This document shows positions 1 through 34,583 of a DNA stretch of 39,037 bases, in pieces. The notes under the pieces are model-generated. The model did not search any database. It was not told the DNA's origin and saw only the letters and a list, made by a program, of their open reading frames with translations. The stretch's first letter is position 1; every line of letters starts with the position of its first letter. Source of the stretch: a virus (Duplodnaviria; Heunggongvirae; Uroviricota; Caudoviricetes). The position numbers and the translations under genes were made by a program. The stretch lies in the IMG/VR virus record IMGVR_UViG_2529293063_000017, one strand, 5' to 3'.

Positions 1-1005
1 TTAATCCCCCGTGGACACTGCGTGGACACTTACGCCACCTTTCAGCGGATTAAGGGCCACCGCATCCTGCAGGTAATCCGGTGCAAAATGCGCATATGCC
101 ATTGTTTGCTGAATGGTTGCGTGACCAAGAATCTTCTGAAGCGCAATAATGTTTCCTCCGTTCATCACAAAATGGCTGGCGAACGTATGCCGCAGCACAT
201 GTGCAGCCTGGCCTTTTGGTAAATCGGGCTTAACTCTTTTCAGCGCCAGGCAGAATTCCCGGTACTTCACCTCAAACAAGCTGCCTGTTTCTCTGGTTTT
301 GATCGCCTCACAAACTGCCTGCGAAATTGGCACTGTTCTCTTCCGGCCATTTTTGGTTTCAAGAAACGTTACACGGTTATGAACTATCTGTTCACCACGA
401 AGCTTACAAGCTTCACTCCAGCGCGCCCCTGTGCTTAAACACAAAAGCGCAACACGCCAGTAGTCGCCCTCCAGTGTATCGAGCAATAGCGCCACTTCCT
501 TCTGTGACAGGAACGCCATTTCTCGTGGAGATACATAAAGAATAGAAATTCCCCTTACTGGATGTTCTGCATCCCAAAGACCTATTTTTTTCAGCACGGT
601 AAACATTCCGGATAACCGATTCATGTACCTGTTAGCAGATGACGGTTTCAATCCTTCAGCTATCTTTTGAGAACGCCACGCGATAATTTTCAGCTTATCA
701 AGATCCACAGCCTGCATATCAGCGCCAAGCTCATTAATTATGTTGCGCAGTTGTTTTCGGTCTTCTTCCGCCTTACGCCTGTGCTGGCCGTGATACATCC
801 ACCACAACTCAAGCAAATCATTTAGCGTTCGACGATCACGGTAGCCCTGTATATATTCCCGCTTTTCAGCGTTCGCCATGATGTAGCGTTCAGTGGCCAC
901 CGCTACCGATTTTTTGTCAAATACCTTACGCACGCGCTTTCCCTTGCGTCCGTTCGGCCTGATGTCCAGCAAATAACGACCATCTTCGAGCTTCTTAATC
1001 GACAT
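1..1005 (-). CDS. int: Tyrosine-type phage integrase (P2 Int-like)
   Basis: 339-aa ORF track entry; ATG at 1005 gives MSIKKLEDGRY...; the C-terminal region has the tyrosine recombinase pattern (...HVLRHTFASHF...LGHATIQQTMAYAHF); position next to the C repressor as in P2. Confidence 0.9.
   Translation of the reverse strand: MSIKKLEDGRYLLDIRPNGRKGKRVRKVFDKKSVAVATERYIMANAEKREYIQGYRDRRTLNDLLELWWMYHGQHRRKAEEDRKQLRNIINELGADMQAVDLDKLKIIAWRSQKIAEGLKPSSANRYMNRLSGMFTVLKKIGLWDAEHPVRGISILYVSPREMAFLSQKEVALLLDTLEGDYWRVALLCLSTGARWSEACKLRGEQIVHNRVTFLETKNGRKRTVPISQAVCEAIKTRETGSLFEVKYREFCLALKRVKPDLPKGQAAHVLRHTFASHFVMNGGNIIALQKILGHATIQQTMAYAHFAPDYLQDAVALNPLKGGVSVHAVSTGD
11..35. repeat. Candidate attL core (direct repeat of 37857-37880)
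   Basis: gtggacactgcgtggacacttacgc; shares the 13-bp core cactgcgtggaca and flanking bases with 37857-37880; overlaps the int 3' end as expected for P2-type attP. Confidence 0.4.
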
Positions 1006-1101
1006 TACGAAGCCCTCCAATGAACCGCTCTACAATTTCTCCAGCCTCTTTCCAGCAATAATCAGACCAGACAAAAAGCAGGTCTAACCAGTTTTCTGGC
1101 C

Positions 1102-1422
1102 TCAGCGGGATAATTTTTGGATTGTTTCGGTTGAAACGCGATCTCCCTCCGAATTGCAGGAACCATCAAGAGAGAGAGCCGGAGAAATTTGCCCGACCTC
1201 CGGCATCGTTTCATCTGTTGATAACCAATAAGCATACTTCTTAAATTTAGGGTGTTTCGTAACCTTAAGTAAGGCACCCTCTGTTACTTGCTTCCCCCTC
1301 ACCTCATAGTTAGTTACCGTCCCATAAGGCAGCCCAACACAATCCGCAAACTCCTGGCGGGTCATACCTTCTGCTTCACGAATCAGGCGAAATTTTTCCC
1401 CCATGCTTGACAAAGATGCCAT
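1102..1422 (-). CDS. Immunity repressor, P2 C-like (HTH)
   Basis: Translation ...RQEFADCVGLPYGTVTNYE...KHPKFKKYAYWLSTDETMPEVGQISPALS resembles P2 C; divergent from cox. Start is ambiguous between ATGs at 1422, 1431 and 1440. Confidence 0.8.
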   Translation of the reverse strand: MASLSSMGEKFRLIREAEGMTRQEFADCVGLPYGTVTNYEVRGKQVTEGALLKVTKHPKFKKYAYWLSTDETMPEVGQISPALSLDGSCNSEGDRVSTETIQKLSR

Positions 1423-1535
1423 ATCGGGCATATCCTCCATCGCAACATGCCACATCGGGCACAAACATAAAAACACTCAAATAAGCCGATATAAGCCATT
1501 TTGAGCCATTCGAACGAATTAGGGAGATTACCACA
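1423..1535. promoter_or_regulatory. Divergent early promoter/operator region (Pc/Pe-type lysis-lysogeny switch)
   Basis: Intergenic region between divergently oriented C and cox, the arrangement that carries the face-to-face promoters in P2; individual -10/-35 boxes not resolved. Confidence 0.5.
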
Positions 1536-1823
1536 ATGAGCGAATCAGAGCTTGGGGGGTTCATTCAGGTAGCACCATATCCACTTGAAGCGGTGCCATA
1601 TCAACTATTCGCCAAGATGATCGGCCGCAAGGAATCCACAGTCAGAACCATGATTGACGCAGCAAAGCTACCGACAATTGACTTTGTGAAACCAGGTTCA
1701 GTAAAGACGCGTGCATCAGAAAACTGGGTATATCTGCCAGCATTTAACGAAGGCATGCGCAAAGCGTTTTTTGAGCAACCGAAAGAACGCCGCGACGCAT
1801 GGTTGTTGTGGCTGGGACTTTAG
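1536..1823 (+). CDS. cox: Cox-like excisionase / transcriptional regulator
   Basis: 95 aa; ...PYQLFAKMIGRKESTVRTMIDAAKLPTIDF...NWVYLPAFNEG...RRDAWLLWLGL resembles P2 Cox (...WVYLPAWNNG...WLMWLGL). Confidence 0.85.
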   Translation: MSESELGGFIQVAPYPLEAVPYQLFAKMIGRKESTVRTMIDAAKLPTIDFVKPGSVKTRASENWVYLPAFNEGMRKAFFEQPKERRDAWLLWLGL

Positions 1824-1829
1824 TCATAA

Positions 1830-2036
1830 ATGACCAGCCATATCATCAGCGCCATTCTGACCCTTGTTTTTATTGAGATAGGCGTAATAGAGATCTATTT
1901 GTTTCGCAAGTTAACGGGACATGAAGAACGCTTTATTGAACTCAGCATTGAATATATCGCCGCTTATACCAAAGGACTTTTCCCGGCAGCTATTGGGGCG
2001 ATGTTTATAGCGTTTGTTATCTGGTTTATCGGGTGA
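1830..2036 (+). CDS. Small hydrophobic early protein (two predicted TM segments), unknown function
   Basis: 68-aa ORF directly after cox; hydrophobic N- and C-terminal stretches. Confidence 0.5.
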   Translation: MTSHIISAILTLVFIEIGVIEIYLFRKLTGHEERFIELSIEYIAAYTKGLFPAAIGAMFIAFVIWFIG

Positions 2037-2288
2037 GAAACCTGACAACCCACAACTACTGCAATGAGGGTAATTATGTGTGGCATGGACAAATTGGACC
2101 TTATGTTAATTGTAATACTATCAATTAACTTCGGTTACCTCTTAAGCGGCGCAATTCTCATGTGCGGAGGCAAACGAAAATGAACCAGCAGTCCGCAAAA
2201 CGTGAAAACAATGCGATGCGATTTAATCGCAAATATTTTGAGTTCGGCCTCTATGCCGGAATAATTAAATCTGTACAGAGTCTTTAAC

Positions 2289-2630
2289 ATGAAACAGCAA
2301 CGTAATTCACGCTTTCGCAATGGTGCAGAACGCCACGCTAACCGTTTTGCTACCAGTGCATCACGCAGCAACATCCGCTACAGCCTGAGTGATACACACG
2401 CAACGCCGGATGGCTACCCAGTAAAACAAATCGGCGAGCATGCCTGGCTGATTGAGAAAGCTGGAATCGTGATCCACAAATGCCCACACAATCCGTTTAC
2501 CGGAAACCGCATTTTTGCTCTAAGCAGTGGCGACAATCAGTTCGGGCAGGATTTCACATTATACGAAGCACTTCGCACGGTTGATCGTCTGCTTCGCGGG
2601 CAAAGTTTTATTAAACAGGCTGATTTATAA
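2289..2630 (+). CDS. Hypothetical early-operon protein
   Basis: 113-aa ORF in the co-oriented early block; no family recognised. Confidence 0.55.
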   Translation: MKQQRNSRFRNGAERHANRFATSASRSNIRYSLSDTHATPDGYPVKQIGEHAWLIEKAGIVIHKCPHNPFTGNRIFALSSGDNQFGQDFTLYEALRTVDRLLRGQSFIKQADL

Positions 2631-2640
2631 CAGGTGCTTT

Positions 2641-2928
2641 ATGACCAAAGACCATGCACAAGGTGTATTTATCCGTTTTATTGATTTTCGCGGTGAACTG
2701 TTATTACGTGCATCCGCTATTGACGGAGTGACTCCGGCGGGTAAAAACGGAGCCGACGAAGCCACTTACGTTTATCTGAACGGCACGCGACTGCTTCTGG
2801 AACTTCCGTACCAGACCGTACGAGAAATCATTAGCGAAGCTGAAAAGGCACGCCAGGCTAATGGCGATGAACCCTATATCGAAATTATTTGTATGGATTC
2901 AGAAGCTGAAATACAGAAAGCAGATTAA
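2641..2928 (+). CDS. Hypothetical early-operon protein
   Basis: ATG at 2641 (MTKDHAQGVF...); about 95 aa; tightly packed with neighbours. Confidence 0.55.
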   Translation: MTKDHAQGVFIRFIDFRGELLLRASAIDGVTPAGKNGADEATYVYLNGTRLLLELPYQTVREIISEAEKARQANGDEPYIEIICMDSEAEIQKAD

Positions 2929-2936
2929 AGGGCGTT

Positions 2937-3182
2937 GTGATGGGCAAAGAATATAAAACTCTCATTAACAAAGCACTTGAGCGTTTTTATTTTCGCTTAA
3001 GTGCATCAGGCGCTCATGCTGAACGTGCGGCCCGTGACTCATTGACCAGAGCAATCCGAAGTCTGTATGACGTGGCTTTTTACGCTGATGATCTGGATGC
3101 ACTTAACGAACTTTCCGAGCTGATCTGTGCCGCAGAATGCGGGGAACATATTGAACCGTATAAGCTGGGGAATATCGCATGA
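2937..3182 (+). CDS. Hypothetical early-operon protein
   Basis: 81-aa ORF; its stop overlaps a downstream small ORF (ATGA). Confidence 0.55.
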   Translation: MMGKEYKTLINKALERFYFRLSASGAHAERAARDSLTRAIRSLYDVAFYADDLDALNELSELICAAECGEHIEPYKLGNIA

Positions 3183-3378
3183 GTATATTTATCTCATGGC
3201 TTGTTCTGATTATTTCGGTGGCCTGCGCTATTGGGATTATGCGAATTATTCATTCAATAAAAAAGATTGAACGTTTTTTCACTGGCGAATAACAGAGCAA
3301 ATAAAACCACAGATAAAATAAGAAAATGTAAAAACAATCCGCATTAGCGGAGGTATTCGCACACGCCAAGGAGGCGTA

Positions 3379-3582
3379 ATGGCAATTAAGCATTTTCCTG
3401 TCGTTCGTTTTACCTCCAGAGGGCGTGAATACGAAGTCGACGAACGCCTGATTACCACAATCGACAAACACCGTTCGGAAAAGGATGCACACCACATCTA
3501 CCTCACTGACGGCACTTACTTCTGCGCCACCAACGTGGCGCGGGTGAATCTTATCCGACAGGTACAGGAGCCACGCAGATGA
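3379..3582 (+). CDS. Hypothetical early-operon protein
   Basis: 67-aa ORF preceded by a strong RBS (aaggaggcgtaATG). Confidence 0.6.
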   Translation: MAIKHFPVVRFTSRGREYEVDERLITTIDKHRSEKDAHHIYLTDGTYFCATNVARVNLIRQVQEPRR

Positions 3583-5138: not shown

Positions 5139-7946
5139 ATGACGGCAGAGTACATCAGGGACTGGCAACAACCGCGCCACGCAGTGGGGCGTGAAGGAAC
5201 GGGGATCCCCGCTCCTGAATCCGCGCTTTCCTCCTGGCTGGATGCCTACCGGGTAGAGAACGAGCGCTGCCAGGAAATGGCTGATGCGGCGTTCTCCGCA
5301 ACGCCGCTGGGCAACCTGATTAATAAAAGCCTGGACGCACAGGAAAAACAGGACAAAACCATCACACTGGCAGGAGACGCCAGAAAACAGGCACGCGGCG
5401 CGGTGGATGAAGCCATGGCTTCGCTGCGCCTGCTGCCGTCCTATCTGCGCGATCCGCTTATTCGCCACCTCTCCTTCCTGCGCAAAAAACAGGAAGCCGA
5501 TCGTCAGAAAGGCAAAAAGAGCTGGCAGGCTGAACGCTACGCGCGCGGAAACCTGCGCAAAATATTCGAACGTCTGGAGCGCACCGATCACCGCTGGCTG
5601 ACACAGGGTTATCGCTCCCTTGCCGGACGCGAACGCCTGGATGATTTGCTTTACCTGCCGCAGCTCAACCAGCACCAGATACAGACGCTGGCCACCATGA
5701 CGGCGGCGATGTTCAGCAGCACCTTCGAAAAACTCTGCGATGGCTTTGGCGCGACCGATGGCGAACTGACCATGGATGTAACGCTGAAGGCGTATCAGAT
5801 GCTGGCCCGCATGGCGTTACACCTGCACGCCATGCCGCCACATTACGAAGCTCTGAACAAGAGCGATCCGGATACGGAACTGTTACCGGGCGCAATCCTT
5901 CGCCTGACCTGTGCGGAATGGTGGAAACGCAAACTGTGGCTGTTACGTTGCGAGTGGCGGGAAGAACAACTCCGCGCCGCCTGTCTGGTTTCCAGAAAAA
6001 CATCGCCCTATCTGAGCCAGGACGCGTTAAGCGAGTTTCGCGCACAGCGCGAGAAAACACGCGATTTCCTGAAAAGTTTCATGCTGGAAAACGAAGACGG
6101 GTTCACGATTGATCTCGAGACAGTGTATTACGCGGGAGTAAGTAACCCGGTTCACCGTAAGGCAGAAATGATGGCCACCATGAAGGGGCTGGAACTTCTG
6201 GCCGAAGCCCGTGGCGACAAAGCGGTGTTTCTGACCATCACCTGCCCGTCAAAATACCACGCCACAACAGAGAACGGTCATCCGAATCCCAAATGGAACG
6301 GGGCCACCATGCGCGACTCCAGCGATTACCTGGTTAACACGTTTTTTGCGGCGGTCCGCAAGAAACTGAACCGCGACGGCCTGCGCTGGTATGGCATCCG
6401 CACGGTGGAGCCTCACCATGACGGCACCGTGCACTGGCATATGATGGTCTTTGCTCATCCGGAAGAAATCGACACCATTGTGTCCCACACCCGCGATATT
6501 GCCATTCAGGAAGATCGTCACGAGCTGGGTGATGATATTACCCCACGCTTTAAGGCGGAGTACGTCGACGGCTCAAAAGGCACGCCAACCAGCTACATCG
6601 CCACCTACATCGGAAAGAACCTGGACAGCCGCGCCGTAGATGGCATCGACCCGAAAACGGGCAAGCCACGCGTTGACCACGAAACCGGAAAATCAATGGC
6701 CGAGAGCGTGGAACGCGCCATCGGCTGGGCGCGCCTTCACCGTGTCCGCCAGTTCCAGTTCTTTGGTATCCCCTCCCGTCAGGTGTGGCGTGAACTCCGC
6801 CGCCTTGCCAGCCAGATGGCACGCAACCCGGAAGGCCCGCAACGGCTGAAGGATGACGCAATGGATGCGGTACTCGCTGCCGCTGATGCCGGATGTTTTG
6901 CCACCTACATAGAGAAACAGGGCGGCGTACTTGTTCCACGCCAAGACTACCTGATTCGCACCGCCTACGACCTCGCAGATGAGCTGAACGATTACGGCGA
7001 ACAGAGCGTACAGATTTACGGGATCTGGTCGCCGCTCATCGGGGAGTCTTCCCGCGTATGCACGCATCCGGATAACTGGAAGCTGGTAAGACGCAAACCG
7101 GAAGCGGAAGACAGCTCCCACGAAAATGGTTTTGACCTTCAGGGCGGCCCTGCCGCCCCTTGGACTCGTGGCAATAACTGTCCCCGTGTACAGGAAACGG
7201 ACAACAACGGGACAGAACAGCCGGAAGAACGGCCAGCACCGTGGCCGCAGCTTCCTGACGGCGTTGACGTGAATGAATGGATGCGCTCACTGAAACGGCA
7301 CGAACGCCGGGCGCTGATGCGTTCGCTGCGTGACAAACAGGCAAAAAACAGCAGTGATGAAATGCAGAACTGGACACAGAGCCGCAAACAGCCACAGCCT
7401 TTGCCTGATAACCACGAGTTACTCGCTAAAGAATGGCGGGAGTCTGCTGAATCTCTCGGCCTGCATATCGGTGAACAGCAGATGCAGCACCTGTTACGGG
7501 GCGGCAGTCTGTACGTTGACGGCAGCATCATTGCACCGCAGGGATTTGAAATTGTACGCAAACCGGATACCCGCCCGGACAGCCGAATCACGCAGCTCTG
7601 GCAACGCCTGAGTCGTAATCACGGCGTAAGCAGCACGGAGATCCGCCATAACCCGGTCGCCAGCTATCTGGAACAACTAGAGGCATCAGACCCTGAAGCC
7701 GCCGCACGCCTGGCATCCACACTTCAGCAAGACCAGAACACCATGAAAACACCAGTTACCGTACTTTCTGACATGCTGCGCGCCATCCGCGACGCAGAGC
7801 ACGCACAGAGAATCAGTGAAACCACTGAACGCGCCCGCCGCAAAGCAGACCTGCTGCGGGGTGGCCTGAGCAGTGGAAACAAAAAACAGACAAAAACGGG
7901 ATTCACAAATCCCGTAAATGAGCAAAAAACGCGCCGCGATATATGA
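5139..7946 (+). CDS. A: Replication initiation endonuclease (P2 gpA-like, rolling-circle)
   Basis: 935 aa; contains a ...VHWHMMVFAH... histidine motif and ...SYIATYIGKN... paired-tyrosine motif typical of gpA-family initiators; the C-terminal part is longer than I recall for P2 gpA. Confidence 0.9.
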   Translation: MTAEYIRDWQQPRHAVGREGTGIPAPESALSSWLDAYRVENERCQEMADAAFSATPLGNLINKSLDAQEKQDKTITLAGDARKQARGAVDEAMASLRLLPSYLRDPLIRHLSFLRKKQEADRQKGKKSWQAERYARGNLRKIFERLERTDHRWLTQGYRSLAGRERLDDLLYLPQLNQHQIQTLATMTAAMFSSTFEKLCDGFGATDGELTMDVTLKAYQMLARMALHLHAMPPHYEALNKSDPDTELLPGAILRLTCAEWWKRKLWLLRCEWREEQLRAACLVSRKTSPYLSQDALSEFRAQREKTRDFLKSFMLENEDGFTIDLETVYYAGVSNPVHRKAEMMATMKGLELLAEARGDKAVFLTITCPSKYHATTENGHPNPKWNGATMRDSSDYLVNTFFAAVRKKLNRDGLRWYGIRTVEPHHDGTVHWHMMVFAHPEEIDTIVSHTRDIAIQEDRHELGDDITPRFKAEYVDGSKGTPTSYIATYIGKNLDSRAVDGIDPKTGKPRVDHETGKSMAESVERAIGWARLHRVRQFQFFGIPSRQVWRELRRLASQMARNPEGPQRLKDDAMDAVLAAADAGCFATYIEKQGGVLVPRQDYLIRTAYDLADELNDYGEQSVQIYGIWSPLIGESSRVCTHPDNWKLVRRKPEAEDSSHENGFDLQGGPAAPWTRGNNCPRVQETDNNGTEQPEERPAPWPQLPDGVDVNEWMRSLKRHERRALMRSLRDKQAKNSSDEMQNWTQSRKQPQPLPDNHELLAKEWRESAESLGLHIGEQQMQHLLRGGSLYVDGSIIAPQGFEIVRKPDTRPDSRITQLWQRLSRNHGVSSTEIRHNPVASYLEQLEASDPEAAARLASTLQQDQNTMKTPVTVLSDMLRAIRDAEHAQRISETTERARRKADLLRGGLSSGNKKQTKTGFTNPVNEQKTRRDI

Positions 7947-8022: not shown

Positions 8023-8982
8023 ATGAAAATTTGTATCGACGACGGCTCCACCAACATCAAGCTGGCATGGACTGAGAACGGCGAATGCCGCAACGCCATC
8101 AGCCCGAACAGCTTCAAGTCGGAATGGTCTGCGCCGTTCGGTGTCACGCAGCCCGCGAACTACATGCTTGATGGCGTGCGCTATGGTTTTGATCCGGTCA
8201 GCGATCGCTTTGTCCAGACGACCGACACGCAATACCAGTACAGCGATGTGAATGTCATTGCCATTCATCACGCGCTGGTCAAATCAGGCATCACGCCACA
8301 GGAAGTGGATGTGGTTGTCACCCTGCCACTGAGCGAGTATTTCGACACAAACGCACAGCCGGATATGACCAACATCAACCGCAAAAAAGCGAACGTCATG
8401 CGCCCGGTGGAGTACCAGAACGGTGAGGCATTCACTATCCGTAACGTGCGGGTTATGCCTGAATCCATTCCGGCTGGCTTTAAGGCACTGGCTAACATGA
8501 GTCCGTTTGAATCCCTGCTGATTGTGGATTTAGGCGGAACCACGCTGGATGTGGCAAAGGTTCAGGGGCAACTGGCAGGTATCAGCCAGGTGTTTTGCGA
8601 TCCACACGTAGGCGTTTCTCTGATGGCCGATGCCGTACTGTCGGTGATGGCCACTAACGGTATGCGCACCAGTCACCACATCGCCAATACCATTATCGAA
8701 CATCGCCATGATGAAGCCTGGCTGCGCCAGCACATCCACAATGACGCGCATTACGCCAGCCTGATGGCGGTTATTCGTGAAAAGGAAGAAACACTGAAAC
8801 AACGCGTGATCCGCGCGCTGGCGGTTTTTTCGGGTTACGGGCGGGTGATGGTTGTCGGTGGCGGGGCGGAGATTGTGGCACCCGCTATCCGCGAAGCCTG
8901 CGGAGTTAATGCGACTTTCATCGCGGACGGGGTGCCACAGTTTGCTCTGGTTAATGGGCTGTACGCAATGGACAAGGAGTAA
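8023..8982 (+). CDS. parM: ParM/StbA-like actin-type segregation ATPase
   Basis: 319 aa; N-terminus MKICIDDGSTNIKLAW...ISPNSFKSEW...QYSDVNVIAIHHAL closely matches the plasmid R1 ParM N-terminal region as I recall it. Confidence 0.8.
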   Translation: MKICIDDGSTNIKLAWTENGECRNAISPNSFKSEWSAPFGVTQPANYMLDGVRYGFDPVSDRFVQTTDTQYQYSDVNVIAIHHALVKSGITPQEVDVVVTLPLSEYFDTNAQPDMTNINRKKANVMRPVEYQNGEAFTIRNVRVMPESIPAGFKALANMSPFESLLIVDLGGTTLDVAKVQGQLAGISQVFCDPHVGVSLMADAVLSVMATNGMRTSHHIANTIIEHRHDEAWLRQHIHNDAHYASLMAVIREKEETLKQRVIRALAVFSGYGRVMVVGGGAEIVAPAIREACGVNATFIADGVPQFALVNGLYAMDKE

Positions 8983-9301: not shown

Positions 9302-9350
9302 TCTGATAATTGAATTTGAACTAATAAAACACATACCAACACATCATTCT

Positions 9351-9372
9351 GGCACCCTTGCTAACAGGGTGC
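9351..9372. terminator. Hairpin between convergent genes (possible bidirectional terminator)
   Basis: ggcaccct-tgctaac-agggtgcc, 8-bp stem; lies between the parR-like stop (9301) and the stop of the minus-strand membrane gene (9386); no clear U-tract. Confidence 0.35.
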
Positions 9373-9385
9373 CAATGATTTCAAA

Positions 9386-10228
9386 TCATGATGAAATTGC
9401 CGAAGTTTTTTTATCGTGCTGAAGTACCGCAAATGCCATCAAAACCTCAAGAGAATAGCGGCGATAATACTTAACAAAACCATAATAAAATACTCGAGAT
9501 GCAGCAAGAAAAAACAAGAAAAGAGGACCAAAAGGTAACAATCTGATATTTATATCTATTAAGTAAGATAGAGGGGCTAGACACATAATCAACCAGACTG
9601 AGGCGAGAAAAACGAATGTAATGTTTCTACAAAAACCATATAGAGCAACATAGTTTTGTATTTTCAACTGATGATTTTTCGAATGTTCATACACATAATG
9701 ATAAGCAAGACGAAAAAGATCTCCCCTCAACCCTTTGCGTCGATACAACGTAGAAACAGAAAAATTATTTATATAGCCATTTCGTATTTGCGGCCAAAAG
9801 GCCTTAATAAGTATAGGATGTAGTGTGGTTTTATGACACTCAGCTTTATCAAGAATTGATACAGGAAACAAAAAAACTCTACGAATAAAATTAAATATCT
9901 GGAATCCTGTACCACGGCGTTTTATTTTCAGGGGGTTTTTCGGGGAAAACAGATAAGTCGAAGGATATCCAAGCTTACTGTTCATGTATTTTTCAATTAA
10001 ACAGGATGATAGAATAGATATGAAGTGACCTAAAATATATGATAGAACGATCAATGTCACATACATAAACACACTTATTATTTCTTTATATTTCAAGATG
10101 TGGTTTAGAATACTCTCGACATAACCAGGGTTAATTTCAATAGAAAACAAAAAAAGGATAAACAGGAATAATCCACCTGGAATTAGATACCCCAAAAAGT
10201 CATAAAATGAAAACGGATTCTGTGTCAC
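9386..10228 (-). CDS. Polytopic membrane protein (about 4 TM segments), unknown family; accessory cargo
   Basis: 280 aa; hydrophobic helices near the N-terminus and C-terminus flanking a basic soluble segment; markedly AT-rich DNA compared with the phage backbone. Confidence 0.7.
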   Translation of the reverse strand: MTQNPFSFYDFLGYLIPGGLFLFILFLFSIEINPGYVESILNHILKYKEIISVFMYVTLIVLSYILGHFISILSSCLIEKYMNSKLGYPSTYLFSPKNPLKIKRRGTGFQIFNFIRRVFLFPVSILDKAECHKTTLHPILIKAFWPQIRNGYINNFSVSTLYRRKGLRGDLFRLAYHYVYEHSKNHQLKIQNYVALYGFCRNITFVFLASVWLIMCLAPLSYLIDINIRLLPFGPLFLFFLAASRVFYYGFVKYYRRYSLEVLMAFAVLQHDKKTSAISS

Positions 10229-10267
10229 ACTTCCCCCTGTGCTACTTGTAAATTAAAGAGTCAAACA

Positions 10268-10765
10268 TTATTTGTTTTTCCGTAAAGGATTAGCTTTCCA
10301 TCTTCTTACTAACCATTCGAATTCTTGATATGTAGTATCCGAATTAATGCTTTCTCTGATTGCTTTAATTAATGGCTCGGCAATATCATATGTCTCTACA
10401 ACTGTTGTGTAAGATGTTCTTTTTATCATTTTTTCATCATAAATACCTTCACGAATACTTACAGCAACTCGCTCGTAAAAATTTAAAATATATTGAAATT
10501 TTCGACGCTCGGCCATTTCCTCATCTGTTATTGTACAACCATCACAAGGAAAAACATAAGAACGAAATGATTTGCCTGAACGATGCACTTGTTTCAGGGT
10601 ATGCAATGACTCTATATATTGCATATCTTGCCGACTCTCAAAAAGAAAGTTAGCCGTTTGAGTTTTCTTTGCGGTACGCACATTGTAGATAATGGTTCCA
10701 ATGGCAACCAAAACGCCAAGCAGAACAATAGCATTGCTGATGATTTGTAGTGTTATTGGGTTCAT
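10268..10765 (-). CDS. Single-pass membrane-anchored protein (N-terminal TM plus about 130-aa cytoplasmic domain), unknown family; accessory cargo
   Basis: 165 aa; N-terminal ITLQIISNAIVLLGVLVAIGTIIY helix; AT-rich; co-oriented immediately upstream of 9386-10228, so a likely two-gene operon. Confidence 0.7.
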   Translation of the reverse strand: MNPITLQIISNAIVLLGVLVAIGTIIYNVRTAKKTQTANFLFESRQDMQYIESLHTLKQVHRSGKSFRSYVFPCDGCTITDEEMAERRKFQYILNFYERVAVSIREGIYDEKMIKRTSYTTVVETYDIAEPLIKAIRESINSDTTYQEFEWLVRRWKANPLRKNK

Positions 10766-10786
10766 CCTATTTCATCCATAAAAAAG

Positions 10787-10812
10787 GCGGGGAGCAAATC
10801 CCCGCCTCATTA
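10787..10812. other. GC-rich palindrome; terminator or cos-proximal element
   Basis: aaaaaaggcgggga-gcaaa-tccccgcctc; partial resemblance to the G-rich P2/186 cohesive-end sequence as I recall it; lies in the about 650-bp non-coding stretch next to Q where P2 carries cos. Confidence 0.3.
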
Positions 10813-10961
10813 GAGGTCAACGTAGCTTAGAAACCATCAAATTCATCATACATTTTTTTCATATCAACCCCCTCATAGAAATCATAACCACGTTTTGTGG
10901 TTTTTGTGACGCATAAACTACATCAAAGGCAAGCCACGGTCAAATATATAGGCATGCTTAC

Positions 10962-10988
10962 CTGCACAAAAGTGCACAAATTTGCACA
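10962..10988. repeat. Three tgcacaa direct repeats at exact 10-bp spacing (helically phased)
   Basis: tgcacaa at 10962, 10972 and 10982; upstream of the membrane-protein cassette promoter region and within the presumed cos-proximal non-coding DNA. Confidence 0.4.
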
Positions 10989-11413
10989 ATTTTTTTGAAC
11001 GACTTTTTGCCCTTCCGGCCCGCGTGGCGGCTGGAGCCGTCAAGGATCCGTGCATGCACAAAAAAACGCGCTTTTTCTGCGCGCAGGTGACGGGGGAACA
11101 GCCCGCGTTTCAGGGGGTAAATAGCATCCCCTGAACGATGTCGCAGCGACACAACAGAATGGCTGTATTTCTCACGCTGAGCGTGAAGAATACGTGAGGG
11201 ATTCTGATTTGATGGGGTGAAAGGTAAGGCCGTCAAAATCGCACTGAGGCGGCGAGAACATGCAGTCAACGCGGTGGGATTGCGTAAGAGTCTGACCGTC
11301 GATGGTGGCGATAAACTGGAAGGCGTCGTGAAATTATCTGACTGATACAGGAGCTGGAGAGTCGGGGCATAAATTTTTTATGCCCCGGCGAAGCAGCAGA
11401 CAAGCGAAGCGCG

Positions 11414-12460
11414 TCAGGATGTGGGCAGGGTGTCTAACAGTGCGTAAGGGTTAAAGCGGATCACCTCTTCGCCAAGCCAGTCATTGATGTGCTTCATGGC
11501 CTCCATGACGGGCATCAGCTCGTTAATTGCGTAAACCCGCGCGGCCTTCTCCACATCACCAAACGCACTTTTTTCACCCGGCATCGCCCCCATCAGTTGC
11601 GGCGGAACGCGGTGCGCAGCCAGCACATCATCACGGGATGCCGCCTTAACATTCATGAACTCATCCTTTGCGGTGATCTGCTGGAACGGCAAAATTTGCA
11701 CCCCCTCTTTGCCCCCGTTGGGCGCATGAATGAGCACGTTTTTAAACGCACCACCACCACGCGCACCCTGTAGCGTTTCTTTCAGGGAGTCCATGCTTTC
11801 GCGGTTTACCTGCGCTGCACCGATGTAGATGATGCACCCGGCGTGGGATCCGTTGTCGTAATACAGTTTTCTGAACATGTCCGCCGAATGAGACAGGCTG
11901 GCCGAGAGTAATGCGCCGAGATATTCCGGCATGCCGTAGATTTCCTGGTTAATGTCCGGATTCATCAGGTGGCACACTTTGCCTGGGCGAAACTGAAACG
12001 CATCCTTGCCATCCTGCACATACCACCATGATTCAAGATCGCTTCCGCGTCGCATGTATTTCGCCAGGGCGTGCCGTAATTTAAGCGGTTCGCCGAGCAT
12101 ATTGCTTCGAAGCTCAAGGAATGCGTTACCGAACACAAACCAGTCCAGCGCCAGCGCCGAGAAATCCTGCCGGGAAAGCAGCGGGTGCGGGATGTAGCAA
12201 CCGAGCAATACATTGCGCTTAAAGTAAAGCGCAGACTGATGCCAGGACGTTTGCCGGGCGGCTCTTGCCAGACCGTACCAGTCCACCGGGGTTTCATACC
12301 ACCGCCCGTTATCAGCACAGTACATATTGTCCAGCAGGTCATGCCCGGTCAGGCGATAAGGACCATCAAATGTGAATGCACTGAGCGATGATTCTTTCCT
12401 GAGCGCATCAGCGAGATCAATGCGTGAACTCATGCGCACTTTTTTATTTTTTCTGCTCAT
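11414..12460 (-). CDS. Q: Portal (capsid vertex) protein, gpQ-like
   Basis: 348 aa; size and position (leftward operon with the terminase, divergent from O) match P2 Q. Confidence 0.8.
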   Translation of the reverse strand: MSRKNKKVRMSSRIDLADALRKESSLSAFTFDGPYRLTGHDLLDNMYCADNGRWYETPVDWYGLARAARQTSWHQSALYFKRNVLLGCYIPHPLLSRQDFSALALDWFVFGNAFLELRSNMLGEPLKLRHALAKYMRRGSDLESWWYVQDGKDAFQFRPGKVCHLMNPDINQEIYGMPEYLGALLSASLSHSADMFRKLYYDNGSHAGCIIYIGAAQVNRESMDSLKETLQGARGGGAFKNVLIHAPNGGKEGVQILPFQQITAKDEFMNVKAASRDDVLAAHRVPPQLMGAMPGEKSAFGDVEKAARVYAINELMPVMEAMKHINDWLGEEVIRFNPYALLDTLPTS

Positions 12461-22833: not shown

Positions 22834-24999
22834 ATGAGTACCACAACACGAAAATTTAAAACCATTATCACTGATACTGGTGCCAAAAAATTAGCTCAGG
22901 CAGCCGCGCCAGGTGGTAATCCTGTCCGCCTGACTCACATGGCCGTGGGCGACGGTGGCGGCACGTTGCCCACACCAGACAGTAAGCAGACCCGTCTGGT
23001 GCATGAGGTGTGGCGACATACTGTTAATCGCGTCATCCTGGACGCAACACATCAGAACCGCATTATTGCGGAGCTGGTTATTCCTCCTGAAACGGGCGGA
23101 TTCTGGATCCGGGAAATTGGTGTATTTGATGAGCACGGCGATTTAATCGCGGTGGGCAATACTGCCGAAAGTTACAAACCAACCGTTGCCGAAGGGTCCG
23201 GACGTGCACAAACATTTCGCACCATTCTGACCGTATCCAGCACTGCCACCGTGGCGCTTACCGTGGATAACACCATGGTGATGGCCACAGTGGATTACGT
23301 GGATGACAAACTGAAAGAGCATGAACAGTCACGACGTCACCCGGATGCCTCGCTGACCGCAAAAGGCTTTGTTCAACTCAGTAGCGCCACTAACAGCGAT
23401 TCTGAAACGCTGGCTGCAACGCCGAAAGCGGTTAAGGCCGCGTATGACCTGGCTAACGGAAAATATACCGCTCAGGACGCCACGACGGCACGAAAAGGGA
23501 TAGTCCAGCTCAGCAGTGCAACCAACAGCACGTCTGAAACGCTGGCAGCGACACCAAAAGCGGTTAAGGCGGTAATGGATGAAACGAACAAGAAAGCCCC
23601 ATTAAACAGCCCGGCACTGACCGGAACGCCAACAACACCAACTGCACAACAGGGAACGAATAATACCCAAATCGCAAGCACGGCTTTCGTTATGGCCGCG
23701 ATTGCCGCACTTGTAGACTCTTCACCTGACGCACTGAACACGCTGAACGAACTGGCGGCGGCGCTGGGCAACGACCCGAATTTTGCGACCACCATGACTA
23801 ACGCGCTTGCGGGTAAGCAACCGAAAGATGCCACCCTGACGGCGCTGGCCGGGCTTGCTACTGCGGCAGACAGGTTTCCGTATTTTACGGGGAATGATGT
23901 TGCCAGTCTGGCAACCCTGACAGAAGTCGGGCGGGATATTCTTGCGAAATCGACCGTTGCCGCTGTTATCGAATACCTCGGTTTACAGGAAACGGTAAAC
24001 AGGGCTGGTAACGCCGTGCAAAAAAATGGCGATACCTTGTCCGGTGGGCTTACTTTTGAAAATGACTCAATCCTTGCCTGGATTCGAAATACTGACTGGG
24101 CGAAGATTGGATTTAAAAATGATGCTGATGGTGACACTGATTCATACATGTGGTTTGAAACAGGCGACAACGGCAATGAATATTTCAAATGGAGAAGCAA
24201 AAAAAGCACCACAACAAAAGACCTGATGAATCTTAAATGGGATGCTTTGTTTGTCCTTGTTAAAGCCCTTTTCAGCAGTGAAGTAAAAATATCGACAGTC
24301 AATGCACTAAGGATATTTAATTCATCTTTTGGTGCCATTTTTCGCCGTTCTGAAGAATGCCTGCATATCATCCCGACACGAGAGAATGAGGGAGAAAATG
24401 GTGATATAGGGCCACTACGCCCCTTTACGCTTAATCTTAGAACTGGTCGGATAAGCATGGGGCATGGTCTTGATGTTACAGGGGATATATTTGCAAACCG
24501 TTTTGCAATTAACAGTAGTACCGGCATGTGGATTCATATGCGTGACCAGAATGTTATTTTGGGACGCAATGCGGTATCCACCGATGGTGCACAGGCATTA
24601 CTTCGTCAGGACCATGCTGATCGCAAATTTATGATTGGTGGGCTGGGAAATAAGCAATTTGGCATCTACATGATTAATAACTCAAGGACAGCTAATGGCA
24701 CCGATGGTCAGGCGTACATGGATAATAACGGGAACTGGCTTTGCGGCTCGCAAGTTATTCCCGGCAACTATGGCAATTTTGATTCCAGATATGTGAAAGA
24801 TGTTCGACTTGGTTCACAGCAATATTATGGAGTGAACAACTGGCAAACATGGAATTTCCAGTGCCCGTCAGGTCATGTATTGTCTGGTATTAATGTTCAG
24901 GATACAGGGTCCAACTCTGCCGATAATATAGCGGGCGTTTATTACAGACCCGTTCAAAAGTATATAAATGGCACCTGGTATAATATAGCGAGCGTTTAA
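22834..24999 (+). CDS. H: Tail fibre protein, gpH-like; C-terminal part lies inside the invertible segment (currently expressed variant)
   Basis: 721 aa; Ala/Thr-rich repeats; C-terminus ...[12 protein letters not shown]; a gix-like crossover site at 23966-23999 lies in-frame inside the gene. Confidence 0.9.
23966..23999. other. gix/hix-like inversion crossover site (left inverted repeat, about 34 bp)
   Basis: ttatcgaatacctcggtttacaggaaacggtaaa; reverse-complement match to 27030-27063; resembles the Mu gix site as I recall it (TTCCTGTAAACCGAGGTTTTGGATAA). Confidence 0.75.
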
Positions 25000-25000
25000 T

Positions 25001-25528
25001 ATGATGCACTTAAAGAACATAAAAGCGGGTAATGCTAAAACACTGGAACAGTATGAGTTAACAAAGAAGCACGGAGTCATCTGGCTTTACTCTGAGGACG
25101 AAAAAAACTGGTATGAGGAAGTGAAAAACTTTCAGCCAGACACCATAAAGATTGTTTACGATAAAAATCAGATTATAGTCGCTATCACCAGAGATGCTTC
25201 AACGCTTAATCCTGAAGGTTTTAGCGTTGTTGAGGTTCCTGATATTACCTCCAACCGACGTGCTGACGACTCAGGTAAATGGATGTTTAAGGATGGTGCT
25301 GTGGTTAAACGGATTTATACGACAGATGAGCAGCAACAACAGGCAGAATCACAAAAGGCCGCGTTACTTTCCGAAGCAGAAAGCGTTATTCAGCCACTGG
25401 AACGCGCCGTCAGGCTGAATATGGCGACGGATGAGGAACGCGCACGACTGGAGTCATGGGAACGCTACAGTGTTCTGGTCAGCCGTGTGGATACGGCAAA
25501 TCCTGAATGGCCACAAAAGCCTGAATAA
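25001..25528 (+). CDS. G: Tail fibre assembly protein (gpG / Mu U-like)
   Basis: 175 aa; immediately after H; paralogous to the minus-strand ORF 25557-26090. Confidence 0.85.
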
Positions 25529-25534
25529 AAATTA

Positions 25535-25554
25535 AGGCCCGCTATAGGGCCTTG
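25535..25554. terminator. Hairpin between convergent G and G' (bidirectional terminator candidate)
   Basis: aaggccc-gctata-gggcctt, 7-bp stem, at the centre of the invertible segment. Confidence 0.45.
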
Positions 25555-25556
25555 TC

Positions 25557-26090
25557 TCATTCAGGTTGTTCGGGAAACGTTACTGGCAGGCTGGAAGTGT
25601 CTGTAGATTCGACTTTCTGCGCAAAGAGCATCCACTCTGTTAATTTTTGTTTATTCTCGTCGGAAATGATGCCCAGCCGTAGCTGTGAGTCCCATAGCTG
25701 GGTTTTATCCCTGACGAGCTGTAGCAGGCTTTGCTTTTCATTTTCCGCCTGCTGCCTCTGCTCTTCCTCGGTATAAGTTCGCTTTACCACTACGCCATCT
25801 TTGAACATCCATTTACCCGAAATGTCAGCACGGCGATTTGCTGTAATATCAGGTAATTCAACGACGCTTGCGCCTTCCGGATTAATTGCTGAAACATCCT
25901 TTTCAATACAAATAATAACGCCGTTATGGCCATAGACCATTTTCAAAGTGTCTGGCTGGAAATTCTTTTGTTCCTCATACCAGTTTTTTCCATCATCTGA
26001 ATAAAGCCATTTGATGTTAAATTGCTTTGTTAGCTGGTATTGCTCTTTTGTTTTAGGGTTGCCAGCAGTAATGTTTTTTAAGTGCATCAT
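25557..26090 (-). CDS. Alternative tail fibre assembly protein (G'/U'-like)
   Basis: 177 aa; MMHLKNITAGNPKT... paralogous to G ([14 protein letters not shown]...). Confidence 0.85.
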   Translation of the reverse strand: MMHLKNITAGNPKTKEQYQLTKQFNIKWLYSDDGKNWYEEQKNFQPDTLKMVYGHNGVIICIEKDVSAINPEGASVVELPDITANRRADISGKWMFKDGVVVKRTYTEEEQRQQAENEKQSLLQLVRDKTQLWDSQLRLGIISDENKQKLTEWMLFAQKVESTDTSSLPVTFPEQPE

Positions 26091-26092
26091 CG

Positions 26093-27037
26093 TTAAATAC
26101 TCCCCGCGTTATACCACGTCCCATTAATGCAATACTGAATTGGCCTTGCCTGAGTTGTATCAATTAATGCATCACGGTTTCCGTTGACTGAACCCGTAAC
26201 GACATAACCTGACCTGTCAGACCAGCCGGGGCCATTCCATGTCTGAACAGATGACAGACCGCCAAGGCGAATACCTGTAATAAACCTTGAGTTACATTCT
26301 GCCTGCGTGTATGCACCAACATCTCCCGCAGAGGGTTTGCGGGTCGTGGTGTAAAACTCTGACCAGTCAACCTCAAATCCATAACCATCACGCGCTGAAC
26401 GATAAAAAATACCGCCGTTCCTGTAATTCACGCGGAACTGTACAGCAGGGCAGCTCCCCGTATTCATATTGAAGTGGAGGATTAATGTCGATGCGCCACC
26501 AATGTTTGCGTTATAGACCCCGCTATTCCAGTTCCAGCCAACAGCTTTATCATTTCCGACAGTGCTTCCTGTTTGCCCTAAAGCAAATGCAGGTTGTTGA
26601 TTTTTCGTGTTGTAGTCTCGTCGCCAGCCAGGAGCATAAGCATCACCATGATTAATATAAGTGAATTGAGCGTTAGTAATTCCGCCACCGCTGGACGTGC
26701 TCGGCGTGGTAACGCGTATGGTCATTGCGCCGCGAGTGCCAATAACTTCCACCACAGCACCTGCAAGACAAATATTTCCGCAACCTGTATCTGTAATGAC
26801 CTTATTATTTGCATAAGCCCATGAGCCTTTGCACATCCAGTAAGGATGGTTAAATGCTCCCTGACTCTCCAGCCACGAAATAAATTGCGCGGTTGTCCAG
26901 ACCTGACTATCGCCACCAATATCCAGCCATGCGCTATATGCGCGGCAGGCCCCAATATTTTTGGTGAAGGTATCTTTTCCCGGAATATCTGCGCCGTTCT
27001 GGTTTTTCTGTAATGCGCCAGAAGCCTGATTTACCGT
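26093..27037 (-). CDS. Alternative tail-fibre C-terminal variable segment (H'-variable), start-less; fuses to H constant part after inversion
   Basis: Reading frame is open on the minus strand from the gix-like site down to the stop at 26093 and in phase with H across the shared crossover sequence; ends ...INGTWYNAGSI, parallel to the H C-terminus. Confidence 0.75.
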   Translation of the reverse strand, partial: TVNQASGALQKNQNGADIPGKDTFTKNIGACRAYSAWLDIGGDSQVWTTAQFISWLESQGAFNHPYWMCKGSWAYANNKVITDTGCGNICLAGAVVEVIGTRGAMTIRVTTPSTSSGGGITNAQFTYINHGDAYAPGWRRDYNTKNQQPAFALGQTGSTVGNDKAVGWNWNSGVYNANIGGASTLILHFNMNTGSCPAVQFRVNYRNGGIFYRSARDGYGFEVDWSEFYTTTRKPSAGDVGAYTQAECNSRFITGIRLGGLSSVQTWNGPGWSDRSGYVVTGSVNGNRDALIDTTQARPIQYCINGTWYNAGSI

Positions 27038-27063
27038 TTCCTGTAAACCGAGGTTTTAGATAA
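27030..27063. other. gix/hix-like inversion crossover site (right inverted repeat)
   Basis: ttcctgtaaaccgaggttttagataa at 27038-27063, 25/26 to the Mu gix sequence as I recall it; inverted copy of 23966-23999. Confidence 0.8.
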
Positions 27064-27117
27064 TGGCCGTTTCCGGCCTGCATGGCATGATTTGCGCTTT
27101 TGGACGGGAGATTCAGC

Positions 27118-27705
27118 GTGCTGATTGGCTATGTAAGGGTATCAACAAATGACCAGAATACAGACCTGCAACGAAACGCTCTTGTTTGTGCAGGATGTGA
27201 ACAAATATTTGAAGATAAATTAAGCGGGACAAAGACAGACCGACCGGGATTAAAACGCGCTTTAAAGCGCCTTCAAAAAGGTGACACGCTGGTTGTCTGG
27301 AAACTGGATCGCCTCGGGCGAAGCATGAAACATCTGATTTCTCTCGTCGGGGAACTACGGGAGCGAGGAATTAATTTTCGCAGTCTGACCGACAGCATAG
27401 ATACATCTTCTCCAATGGGGCGTTTTTTCTTCCACGTGATGGGTGCCCTGGCTGAAATGGAACGTGAATTAATTGTTGAACGTACACTGGCCGGACTGGC
27501 GGCAGCACGCGCACGGGGGCGCACAGGCGGACGTCGACCGAAGCTGACAAAAGAACAGCATGAGCAAATAGCAAGGCTGATCAAAAACGGGCACGACAGA
27601 AAACAACTGGCAATAATTTACGGCATTGGTATATCGACGATTTATCGTTACCACCCCGCAGGAGAATCAATCGGAACAATAGAGAAGAGTCAGGAAACAA
27701 AATAA
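27118..27705 (+). CDS. Serine DNA invertase, Gin/Pin/Cin/Hin family
   Basis: MLIGYVRVSTNDQNTDLQRNALVCAGCEQIFEDKLSG...LVVWKLDRLGRSMKHLISLVGELRERGINFRSLTDSIDTSSPMGRFFFHVMGALAEMERELI... is close to Gin-family invertases; GTG start at 27118 (the ORF track extends to a TTG at 27100). Confidence 0.9.
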   Translation: MLIGYVRVSTNDQNTDLQRNALVCAGCEQIFEDKLSGTKTDRPGLKRALKRLQKGDTLVVWKLDRLGRSMKHLISLVGELRERGINFRSLTDSIDTSSPMGRFFFHVMGALAEMERELIVERTLAGLAAARARGRTGGRRPKLTKEQHEQIARLIKNGHDRKQLAIIYGIGISTIYRYHPAGESIGTIEKSQETK

Positions 27706-33316: not shown

Positions 33317-33482
33317 AGCTTCAGCCCCTTGTATCCGTTAAATGATTCGGCAACAATCATCACCCACCACGCGCGTAATCTCACCCCTGCGACGTTCTCC
33401 CGCCACGGCGACAACAAAAAGCAGTAACCCCCTCCGCACGCACATGCGACCATGCCGCACAGGGAGGGAACAGATGACCGAC

Positions 33483-34583
33483 ACCACCATGCAATTGATC
33501 AGTCAGGGCACAGACCCCGTGAAAATGCCGGATTTTGATATTCTCGCGGAGGGTAAAACGCTGTCAGGCGTGGCAGAGCGCCTGATGAGCCTGTCACTGA
33601 CCGACAACCGGGGATTTGAAGCAGACCAGCTCACCATCACGCTGGATGATGCAGATGGTCAGTTGCATCTACCGCCACGGGGCGCGCGCCTGACGGTTCT
33701 CATTGGCTGGAAAGGGGAACCGCTGACAGAAAAAGGCACTTACATTGTTGATGAAATCGCTCACGAAGGACCGCCGGACAGGCTGACTGTTTCAGCCAGA
33801 AGCGCAGATTTTCGGGATGAATTTAACGTTAAACGAGAGGTGTCCTGGCATGATGTGACCGTTGAGCGTGTGGTATCCGCCATCGCTCATCGGTATGGTC
33901 TGAAACCGCAAATCAGCGAAATGCTGATGGATATCGAAATCGACCACGCCGACCAGACCGAAGAAAGCGACATGTCCTTCCTTACGCGCATGGCGGAAAT
34001 GCTGGGCGCAATCACCACGGTAAAAAGCGGCAATCTGTTATTCATCATGCCAGGTGGTGGCGTGAACGCACAGGGCCAGCCGTTGCCCTCGTTCGCCATT
34101 ACACGCAGCAGCGGCGATCGCCATCAGTTCCGTATTGCTGATCGCGAGGCGTATACGGGGGTACGCGCCTACTGGCTTGATCTTAATTACGGGAAAAAGA
34201 AAAAAGTCAGCGTGAAACGCCGTAAACCGCCAAAACCCAAAAAGGAGAAAAGCAGCAGCCGTGAAGGTGATTATATGGAAGGCGCGGAAGGCAATGTGTT
34301 TGTGTTACGCAAGACTTATCAGAACGAGCAGGCAGCAAGACGCGCAGCGGCGGCAAAGTGGCAGCAGCTACAACGCGGAGCCGCATCATTTTCCATCACG
34401 CTGGCACGTGGACGCGCAGAACTCTACCCCGAAATGCATGGCACGGTAACAGGATTTAAAAGCGAGATTGATAATCAGGACTGGATTATTGCAAAAGTCG
34501 AGCACACCGTTGATAACAGCGGCTTTACCACGCAGCTTGAGCTTGAAGCAAAAATCCCGGAATGGATAGCGGAAACAGAATGA
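33483..34583 (+). CDS. D: Tail protein gpD-like (late gene D)
   Basis: ...SWHDVTVERVVSAIAHRYGLKP...HADQTEESDMSFLTRMAEMLGAITTVKSGNLLF...GGVNAQGQPLP...FVLRKTY...RGAASFSITLARGR... matches P2 gpD; ATG at 33483 after RBS gggaggg. Confidence 0.85.
   Translation, partial: TTMQLISQGTDPVKMPDFDILAEGKTLSGVAERLMSLSLTDNRGFEADQLTITLDDADGQLHLPPRGARLTVLIGWKGEPLTEKGTYIVDEIAHEGPPDRLTVSARSADFRDEFNVKREVSWHDVTVERVVSAIAHRYGLKPQISEMLMDIEIDHADQTEESDMSFLTRMAEMLGAITTVKSGNLLFIMPGGGVNAQGQPLPSFAITRSSGDRHQFRIADREAYTGVRAYWLDLNYGKKKKVSVKRRKPPKPKKEKSSSREGDYMEGAEGNVFVLRKTYQNEQAARRAAAAKWQQLQRGAASFSITLARGRAELYPEMHGTVTGFKSEIDNQDWIIAKVEHTVDNSGFTTQLELEAKIPEWIAETE

Follow-up and report, generated by a model that had tools for sequence, protein, structure and literature searches.

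What do the two large genes in the AT-rich interval between the replication endonuclease gene A and the portal gene Q of a P2-family prophage encode, and do they act as one system? The question is raised by IMGVR_UViG_2529293063_000017, an IMG/VR virus record of 39,037 nucleotides; the window means this whole stretch of DNA. An earlier note, made from the sequence alone, described the interval as a two-gene membrane-protein cassette of unrecognised family and proposed an undescribed defence or exclusion system. Both open reading frames (ORFs) that it reported are present on the minus strand, 39 nt apart:

10268-10765, minus strand: DUF4760 gene, ATG start; single-pass inner-membrane protein of 165 residues with an all-helical cytoplasmic domain (from the ORF, Pfam, PHROG and AlphaFold)
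9386-10228, minus strand: gene with a GTG start; protein of 280 residues with four transmembrane (TM) segments, a Csx27-like N-terminus and a large basic cytoplasmic loop at residues 63-198 (from the ORF, PHROG and PADLOC)

The interval very likely consists of two independently mobile accessory modules, stacked in the hotspot between A and Q beside the cos site. The true conserved partner of DUF4760 is not the 280-residue protein. It is a micro-peptide gene followed by a terminator, both part of an upstream leader that, with its promoter, was overlooked in the earlier note.

For comparison of neighbourhoods, 87 loci encoding relatives of DUF4760 were retrieved. The family of the 280-residue protein adjoins DUF4760 in only nine of them, all P88-like loci of Escherichia coli (L040-L048), and it is absent within 8 kb in the remaining 78 or so. 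DUF4760 also stands alone on the same backbone, both in two loci (L065/L066) with 100% identity in Q, 96% in A and 99% in ParM and in the Citrobacter phage Shae_phiSM. About 25 P2-like phages of Xenorhabdus, Kluyvera, Dryocola and other genera carry a solo DUF4760 gene some 600 bp from the end of Q, with 84-90% identity in DUF4760 against 50-78% in the portal. The other family is likewise mostly found by itself: of its 71 viral loci, 9 contain DUF4760 or the leader motif and 62 are solo, and integrase is the downstream neighbour in 42 of 59 solo loci. Outside the P88-like lineage, the 280-residue gene stands by itself next to the integrase in lambdoid prophages. Between two E. coli alleles, the synonymous substitution rate (dS) is 0.276 for this gene and 0.039 for DUF4760, a sevenfold difference, so the two genes have different histories. 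The ratio of nonsynonymous to synonymous rates (dN/dS) between the allele of the window and the common allele is 0.07 for DUF4760 and 0.27 for the 280-residue gene; thus, both genes are under purifying selection.

These distributions make an obligate two-component system of the two membrane proteins, for defence or exclusion, quite improbable. As a pair, the genes are very common in E. coli and always intact, being found in 289 of 5426 complete genomes (each with at least 80% query coverage) and at 1102 loci in Table S5B of Rousset et al. No terminator is predicted in the short gap between the genes, so the 280-residue gene is probably co-transcribed behind DUF4760. The association is restricted to one lineage, however, whereas the solo loci of both families, the related backbones with DUF4760 alone and the unequal dS values speak against an obligate pair, and the description of the interval as a two-gene cassette does not hold outside that lineage.

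In Pseudomonas phage D14E the DUF4760 gene follows cI immediately and shares its strand; in a Providencia prophage it adjoins arc, a repressor and ant; and in Klebsiella prophages it adjoins genes of the size of ejection-protein genes. Solo DUF4760 recurs in slots typical of accessory genes expressed in the lysogen (moron or immunity genes). In phage lambda, rexAB sits downstream of cI, which makes it a positional analogue of the D14E module; the DUF4760 module has no sequence similarity to RexA/B or to PADLOC models.

The leader upstream of DUF4760 lies in DNA that, by comparison with P88-type phages lacking the cassette, is specific to the cassette (10766-10962). It contains the following elements:

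10915-10943, minus strand: probable promoter of the module, TTGACC (10943-10938), a 17-nt spacer and TAGTTT (10920-10915), from alignment with other loci
10886-10902, minus strand: dyad AACCAC-N5-GTGGTT, after the promoter and ahead of the mini-ORF
10868-10874, minus strand: strong Shine-Dalgarno (SD) sequence GAGGGGG of the mini-ORF, AGGGGG/GGAGG being conserved in the alignment
10827-10862, minus strand: mini-ORF MKKMYDEFDGF, 11 codons and a stop, previously unannotated
10813-10820, minus strand: conserved, anti-SD-like TTGACCTC box, pairing with the SD region of the mini-ORF in the predicted fold
10784-10808, minus strand: intrinsic terminator, a hairpin of 10 pairs, 7 of them GC, with a T-run behind it; its end is about 20 nt short of the DUF4760 start codon

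A TTGACT-N17-TAATTT arrangement is common to most DUF4760 loci in the alignment. The dyad may be a 5' RNA hairpin or an operator, and other DUF4760 loci have equivalent dyads in which the sequence has changed and the symmetry has been kept. The terminator behaves in the same way in most loci: its stem sequences differ, its pairing is kept, and its helix is 84% paired in the leader alignment. The helix between the TTGACCTC box and the SD region is 68% paired, with changes on both sides at 6 of 10 pairs. The two helices together are 76.9% paired, compared with 43-59% in slid controls, and their covariation score was equalled in none of 500 shuffles. Rfam returned no leader family, the only hit being SorX at E 0.17, far below the gathering score.

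At 54% identity or more, almost every DUF4760 locus has the mini-ORF and the hairpin, and both appear again in L092/L093 (39%). Among 34 unique units, all codons of the D-E-F-D-G-F motif vary synonymously (GAT 24 and GAC 10; GAA 16 and GAG 18; TTT 27 and TTC 7; GGT 11, GGC 20 and GGG 1) and all three stop codons are used. Such synonymous variation implies that selection acts on the peptide, whose conservation centres on the last six residues and the stop codon. Distant homologs of DUF4760, down to 30% identity, also have related mini-ORFs:

Rahnella: MEAMFDEYDWF
L090: MRINEEFDGF
L037: MRYSDEYEGL
Pseudomonas phage D14E: ...REEYEGI
L029/L095 (Pasteurellaceae, viral contig): ...LNEGWDGF, whose stop overlaps the in-frame ATG of DUF4760, with no terminator
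Rhodovulum: MTLNEGWGG

When IMG/VR was scanned with the back-translated motif, 32 of the 48 sites lay within 140 nt upstream of DUF4760. Nothing relevant to the peptide motif was found in the literature.

Two further observations concern the leader. In two P88-like contigs (L141, L146) the DUF4760 gene has been deleted and a degraded leader with a GTG start and a damaged hairpin is left, indicating turnover at the hotspot. In other loci (L013, L015, L018, L025, L049-L064, L075, L092/L093 and L099), a palindrome (A)TTACC-N5-GGTAA(T), absent from the window, lies over the promoter of the DUF4760 module and could be the operator of a regulator.

The order of a short ORF, an intrinsic terminator and a gene is shared with leader-peptide attenuators, both those of the trp/pheA type and the ribosome-stalling leaders of resistance genes. 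The mini-ORF may accordingly be a purely cis-acting leader, in which the behaviour of ribosomes on DEFDGF and its stop codon would gate read-through of the terminator and turn the genes on under translation stress, as in attenuators responsive to antibiotics or amino acids. The gap from the hairpin to the ATG leaves no space for a promoter, so DUF4760, and the 280-residue protein with it, would be made by read-through. The focus of conservation on the end of the peptide, the conserved TTGACCTC box just after the stop codon, and a small hairpin that holds the stop codon in its loop and shows some covariation also agree with a cis-acting leader. Other properties of the leader nevertheless make this explanation, a serious rival, the less likely one. 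An antiterminator alternative was found neither by inspection nor in the minimum-free-energy and consensus folds of the leader; the helix at the SD region and the terminator are mutually compatible, and masking the box does not prevent the terminator from forming. The peptide is conserved in sequence and not enriched in one amino acid. Unlike attenuator leaders, it is also found without a terminator, in the Pasteurellaceae homologs whose mini-ORF is translationally coupled to DUF4760, and without the gene, in orphan ORFs and in virulent phages.

The orphan mini-ORFs end in FDEFDGF with no DUF4760 downstream (L114, L127, L111, L115, L148 and L124/L134), and in some of them the motif is doubled (MFDEFDGFDEFDGF, MLDEFEGFDEFDGF). 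The motif is also carried by virulent T4-like Enterobacter phages of the PG7 group, in which an annotated coding sequence (CDS) of 21 residues, MFSLRKFD..FDEFDGF, lies between a-gt.2 and gene 47. In Enterobacter phage PG7 this is CG98_gp053 (gp053; L229, 979-1044), and it occurs also in L116, L119, L120 and L129. It was located by a DNA search; tblastn with the 21-residue peptide gave no match, probably due to the short, low-complexity query. The PG7-group protein shares its terminal motif with the leader peptide of DUF4760 and so could be a mimic of that peptide, a hint of counter-mimicry drawn from sequence likeness. The coupling without a terminator in L029/L095, the orphan mini-ORFs and the PG7-group CDS all point to a trans-acting peptide, made in larger amounts than DUF4760, in preference to a classic attenuator.

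The leader motif, with its variants DEYDWF and DEFEWV, resembles a stretch of DUF4760 itself, the invariant C-terminal Q-E-[FY]-E-[WF]-L (QEFEWL, residues 147-152). The DNA of the mini-ORF and of the QEFEWL stretch is similar as well (GAATTYGA..TGGTT), and this hints at partial duplication or molecular mimicry.

In the favoured explanation, module 1 is a self-contained unit of probable promoter, 5' dyad, well-translated mini-ORF, strong terminator and DUF4760, and module 2 is the Csx27-like four-TM protein, here probably transcribed behind it. Both modules may be expressed in the lysogen and act at the envelope, by excluding phages or aborting infection. The terminator would keep the peptide far more abundant than DUF4760, and the peptide, putatively short-lived, acidic-aromatic and similar to QEFEWL, would hold DUF4760 inactive. 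Should an infecting phage shut down host expression, the supply of peptide would fail and DUF4760 would act on the membrane. An anti-phage phenotype, toxicity and binding of the peptide to the protein would be expected from such a mechanism. The chances of a defence or exclusion role at the envelope, to which the position of the genes points, appear evenly balanced, and we place the favoured explanation as a whole, with its two modules and its exclusion or abortive infection at the envelope, at the same midpoint. That the mini-ORF peptide is a trans-acting inhibitor is proposed more tentatively and falls somewhat below that balance.

The proposed arrangement follows the logic of type II toxin-antitoxin systems, in that a small product, probably in excess, comes first and a membrane protein second. 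It differs from toxin-antitoxin systems in that the candidate inhibitor has only 8-21 residues and would owe its excess to a transcription terminator. A small and presumably labile product ahead of a membrane protein, as in toxin-antitoxin operons, would also suit an addiction unit, which by post-segregational killing would stabilise the prophage or a possible plasmid state together with parM/stbB. In the window the module adjoins the ParM and Plasmid_stab_B genes. About a quarter of P2-like phages carry genes of the parM/stbB type, and such phages are perhaps maintained as plasmids (Rousset et al., PMC9122126). Most of the DUF4760 loci lack parM/stbB, however; all 303 E. coli placements of the cassette DNA are chromosomal (three phage records contain it as well), and integrated prophages, lambdoid ones among them, have the module too. 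An addiction unit is therefore improbable.

The earlier note recognised no family for either protein. The 165-residue protein is a member of the Pfam family DUF4760 (PF15956; E 1.1e-34; 120.1 bits, gathering cut-off 25; positions 2-141 of the 141 in the profile) and matches phrog_2284 (E 3.9e-74). Hydropathy gives it one TM segment at residues 8-26, in line with the single-pass membrane anchor described in the note. A topology with the N-terminus outside and the C-terminus inside is predicted from the N-terminal TM helix and the positively charged C-terminal part. The AlphaFold (AF2) model has a mean confidence (pLDDT) of 92.4, and in a structure search its closest fold was the EP domain of the EDS1 family, at a similarity that qualifies as a shared fold. 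As DUF4760 is all-helical, the match would be to the EP domain and not to the lipase-like domain. The likeness of the model is a resemblance at the fold level, homology not being demonstrated. The plant EP domain of EDS1, PAD4 and SAG101 is a receptor of nucleotides made by TIR domains. DUF4760 differs from it in being membrane-anchored and in lacking the N-terminal lipase-like domain, as only the TM helix precedes the helical bundle within its 165 residues. No report of a prokaryotic relative of the EDS1-family EP domain was found in the literature.

In the family alignment, residues 60-69 of DUF4760 include an invariant or nearly invariant loop, S63-G-K-S-F-R-S69, and R45, K115 and R137 are conserved. 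Speculatively, the SGKSFRS loop and the conserved basic residues would suit a phosphate-bearing ligand, as a phosphate-binding site of the EP-like helical domain. The full form of the proposal, in which DUF4760 would be the effector of a peptide-gated abortive-infection or exclusion system, its EP-like fold the first prokaryotic or viral relative of the EDS1 family, the peptide of 8-21 residues an off-switch mimicking its C-terminal helix, and PG7 gp053 a counter-defence mimic, is unlikely to be right in every part.

Two candidate relatives of DUF4760 were rejected. P22 SieA, like DUF4760, is a prophage inner-membrane protein of about 160 residues acting alone, and some DUF4760 homologs have a sieA-like neighbourhood of ejection-protein-sized genes, Bro-N/tailspike genes or an arc/ant region. 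SieA has three TM helices and the cytoplasmic motif FxRYPxEAxxFNK (PMC10883804). DUF4760 has one TM segment, the motif is missing from its alignment, and tblastn of DUF4760 against 50,697 phage records returned 15 records and no P22-like Salmonella phage; the peptide-plus-terminator leader sets it further apart. The single-TM partner of the validated P4 system 'RT-nitrilase + 1TM' (PADLOC RTasTM) was also considered, and hhalign gave a probability of 0.75%.

The 280-residue protein matches phrog_12528 (E 1.4e-68) and belongs to a family of 1186 clusters at 50% identity, with strongly conserved polar motifs. Its TM segments were placed by hydropathy at residues 12-30, 44-62, 199-217 and 223-241, the four-TM arrangement of Csx27, and no informative fold match was found in the PDB. 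The PADLOC hidden Markov model of Csx27 matched 18 of 18 family members, with a best E of 5.6e-8, over profile positions 4-63 of 206 only; the related PADLOC model tm_4 matched 4 of the 18. The 280-residue protein differs from Csx27 in a basic cytoplasmic insert of 135 residues. The statement that neither protein of the interval resembles tin, old or any recognised defence family is supported for DUF4760. In PMC7642515 and PMC11662929, Csx27 is described as a four-TM accessory protein of type VI-B1 CRISPR systems that down-regulates Cas13b. Genes for Cas13b, competence, ubiquitin-like or WYL proteins were not found among the sampled neighbours of the 280-residue family, which are integrase, YfdQ-like, ParB-like and cI-like genes or DUF4760.

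Several results weigh against the favoured explanation. The likeness to the EP domain comes with a sequence identity of 6-10%, and a PDB profile search gave no sequence match at E<=10. The window DUF4760 had no match in PADLOC-DB 2.0.0, which includes entries of the tin and old type; 17 of its homologs gave only single-member matches there, at E of at least 0.004. The likeness of the peptide to QEFEWL spans only 3-5 residues. Neither protein sequence is present in the table of tested systems (S2A/S2B) of Rousset et al. (PMC9122126), and no functional study of DUF4760 or of either protein was found in the literature. In Rahnella, DUF4760 is chromosomal, flanked by astE and GGDEF genes, and none of the neighbouring genes that were called belongs to a prophage. 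For several orphan mini-ORFs, a holin- or endolysin-like gene follows 350-490 nt downstream, which could point instead to a role in the phage life cycle.

The last two results would suit a non-defence role, either in lysogenic conversion of envelope physiology or in the life cycle of the phage, with the Csx27-like protein as a DNA-conducting channel and the peptide working with the lysis genes. Proteins of the Csx27 family have been predicted to be single-stranded DNA channels (Makarova 2019, as cited in PMC7642515 and PMC11662929). This role is distinctly unlikely, since the cargo is variable, AT-rich and not universal, lies in a hotspot known for defence systems, and recurs in immunity and moron slots that fit expression in the lysogen.

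The window is a P88-like (Xuanwuvirus) prophage of the P2 family. A near-identical prophage is integrated beside btuC in E. coli JNE120393. Around the two modules, the window contains:

5139-7946: replication endonuclease (gene A)
8023-8982, plus strand: parM, ParM/StbA actin-like partition ATPase of 319 residues (Pfam and PHROG matches)
ending at 9301, plus strand: Plasmid_stab_B gene (stbB)
10963-10989, plus strand: three copies of TGCACAA, at 10963, 10973 and 10983 with exact 10-bp spacing, outside the cassette
11414-12460: portal gene Q, followed by the terminase gene

The order is therefore A, parM, stbB, the cassette, about 650 bp of non-coding DNA, Q and terminase, and the cassette occupies the slot between A and Q in which P2 has old and tin (PMC9122126), as the earlier note had proposed. 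This P2 hotspot is rich in defence systems (PMC9122126; PMC13586616). Separate acquisition was also proposed and is well supported: the GC content is 35.1% in the DUF4760 gene and 33.5% in the 280-residue gene, compared with 54-57% in the flanking A, parM and Q and 51.5% in the window. P88, P884B11 and Shae_phiSM carry differing cargo on the common backbone, so that variable genes occupy the space between the endonuclease and the portal, beside cos, and the junction of cargo and backbone maps to base 10963. Nor is the cassette universal, as the limited share of E. coli genomes that contain it and the other cargo of P88 show.

The TGCACAA repeat had been suspected of regulating the cassette. 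Its three copies and their phasing are real, with coordinates shifted by 1 nt from those first given; a fourth copy lies at 11055-11061, and the whole window contains eight. Homology with P88-type phages that lack the cassette starts exactly at 10963, the first base of the repeat. The block is invariant across four phages with three different cargos, among them P88, P884B11 and Shae_phiSM, and in P884B11 only 18 bp separate it from the end of the linear record. The repeat is thus conserved backbone DNA flanking cos, and it was rejected as a regulator of the cassette. The helically phased copies (10963-10989 and 11055-11061), invariant in Xuanwuvirus phages and about 20-60 bp from the apparent cos end, are plausibly part of the packaging site and possibly a terminase recognition site.

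Other parts of the window also depart from the backbone composition. A second AT-rich island (GC 33-38%) lies between the tail gene D (33342-34583) and ogr (36051-36311). It encodes, at 34732-35790 on the minus strand, a ParA/MinD-type ATPase of 352 residues (AAA_31, E 9e-30), whose match to the PADLOC candidate PDC-M28B is only at the level of the P-loop. The island may be another variable cargo slot. Below-average GC content (42-48%) is found also at 24001-27500 and 1-3500.

The gene pair is not undescribed. Rousset et al. 2022 (Cell Host Microbe; PMC9122126) list it in Table S5B as system #3, 'DUF4760', with the number 1102, read here as a locus count, and the comment '1 TM in protein 1, 4 TM in protein 2'. 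Their DUF4760 differs from that of the window by one residue, their 280-residue protein is the common allele (about 87%), and the A-to-Q slot is the same. That catalogue treats the pair as one system, without the mini-ORF, the terminator, the fold or the link to Csx27. Only P4 unknowns were tested in the 2026 follow-up (PMC13586616).

About 5% of complete E. coli genomes carry this cassette, including an ST131 prophage record, and few occupants of the P2 hotspot are more frequent in the survey of Rousset et al. The comparisons suggest that the unit of function is the peptide, the terminator and DUF4760, not the two large genes; the 280-residue gene is separable, and virulent phages carry a look-alike of the peptide. 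If the likeness to the EP domain were to reflect shared ancestry or a shared mode of ligand binding, it would link phage-borne bacterial immunity to a domain of plant immune receptors.

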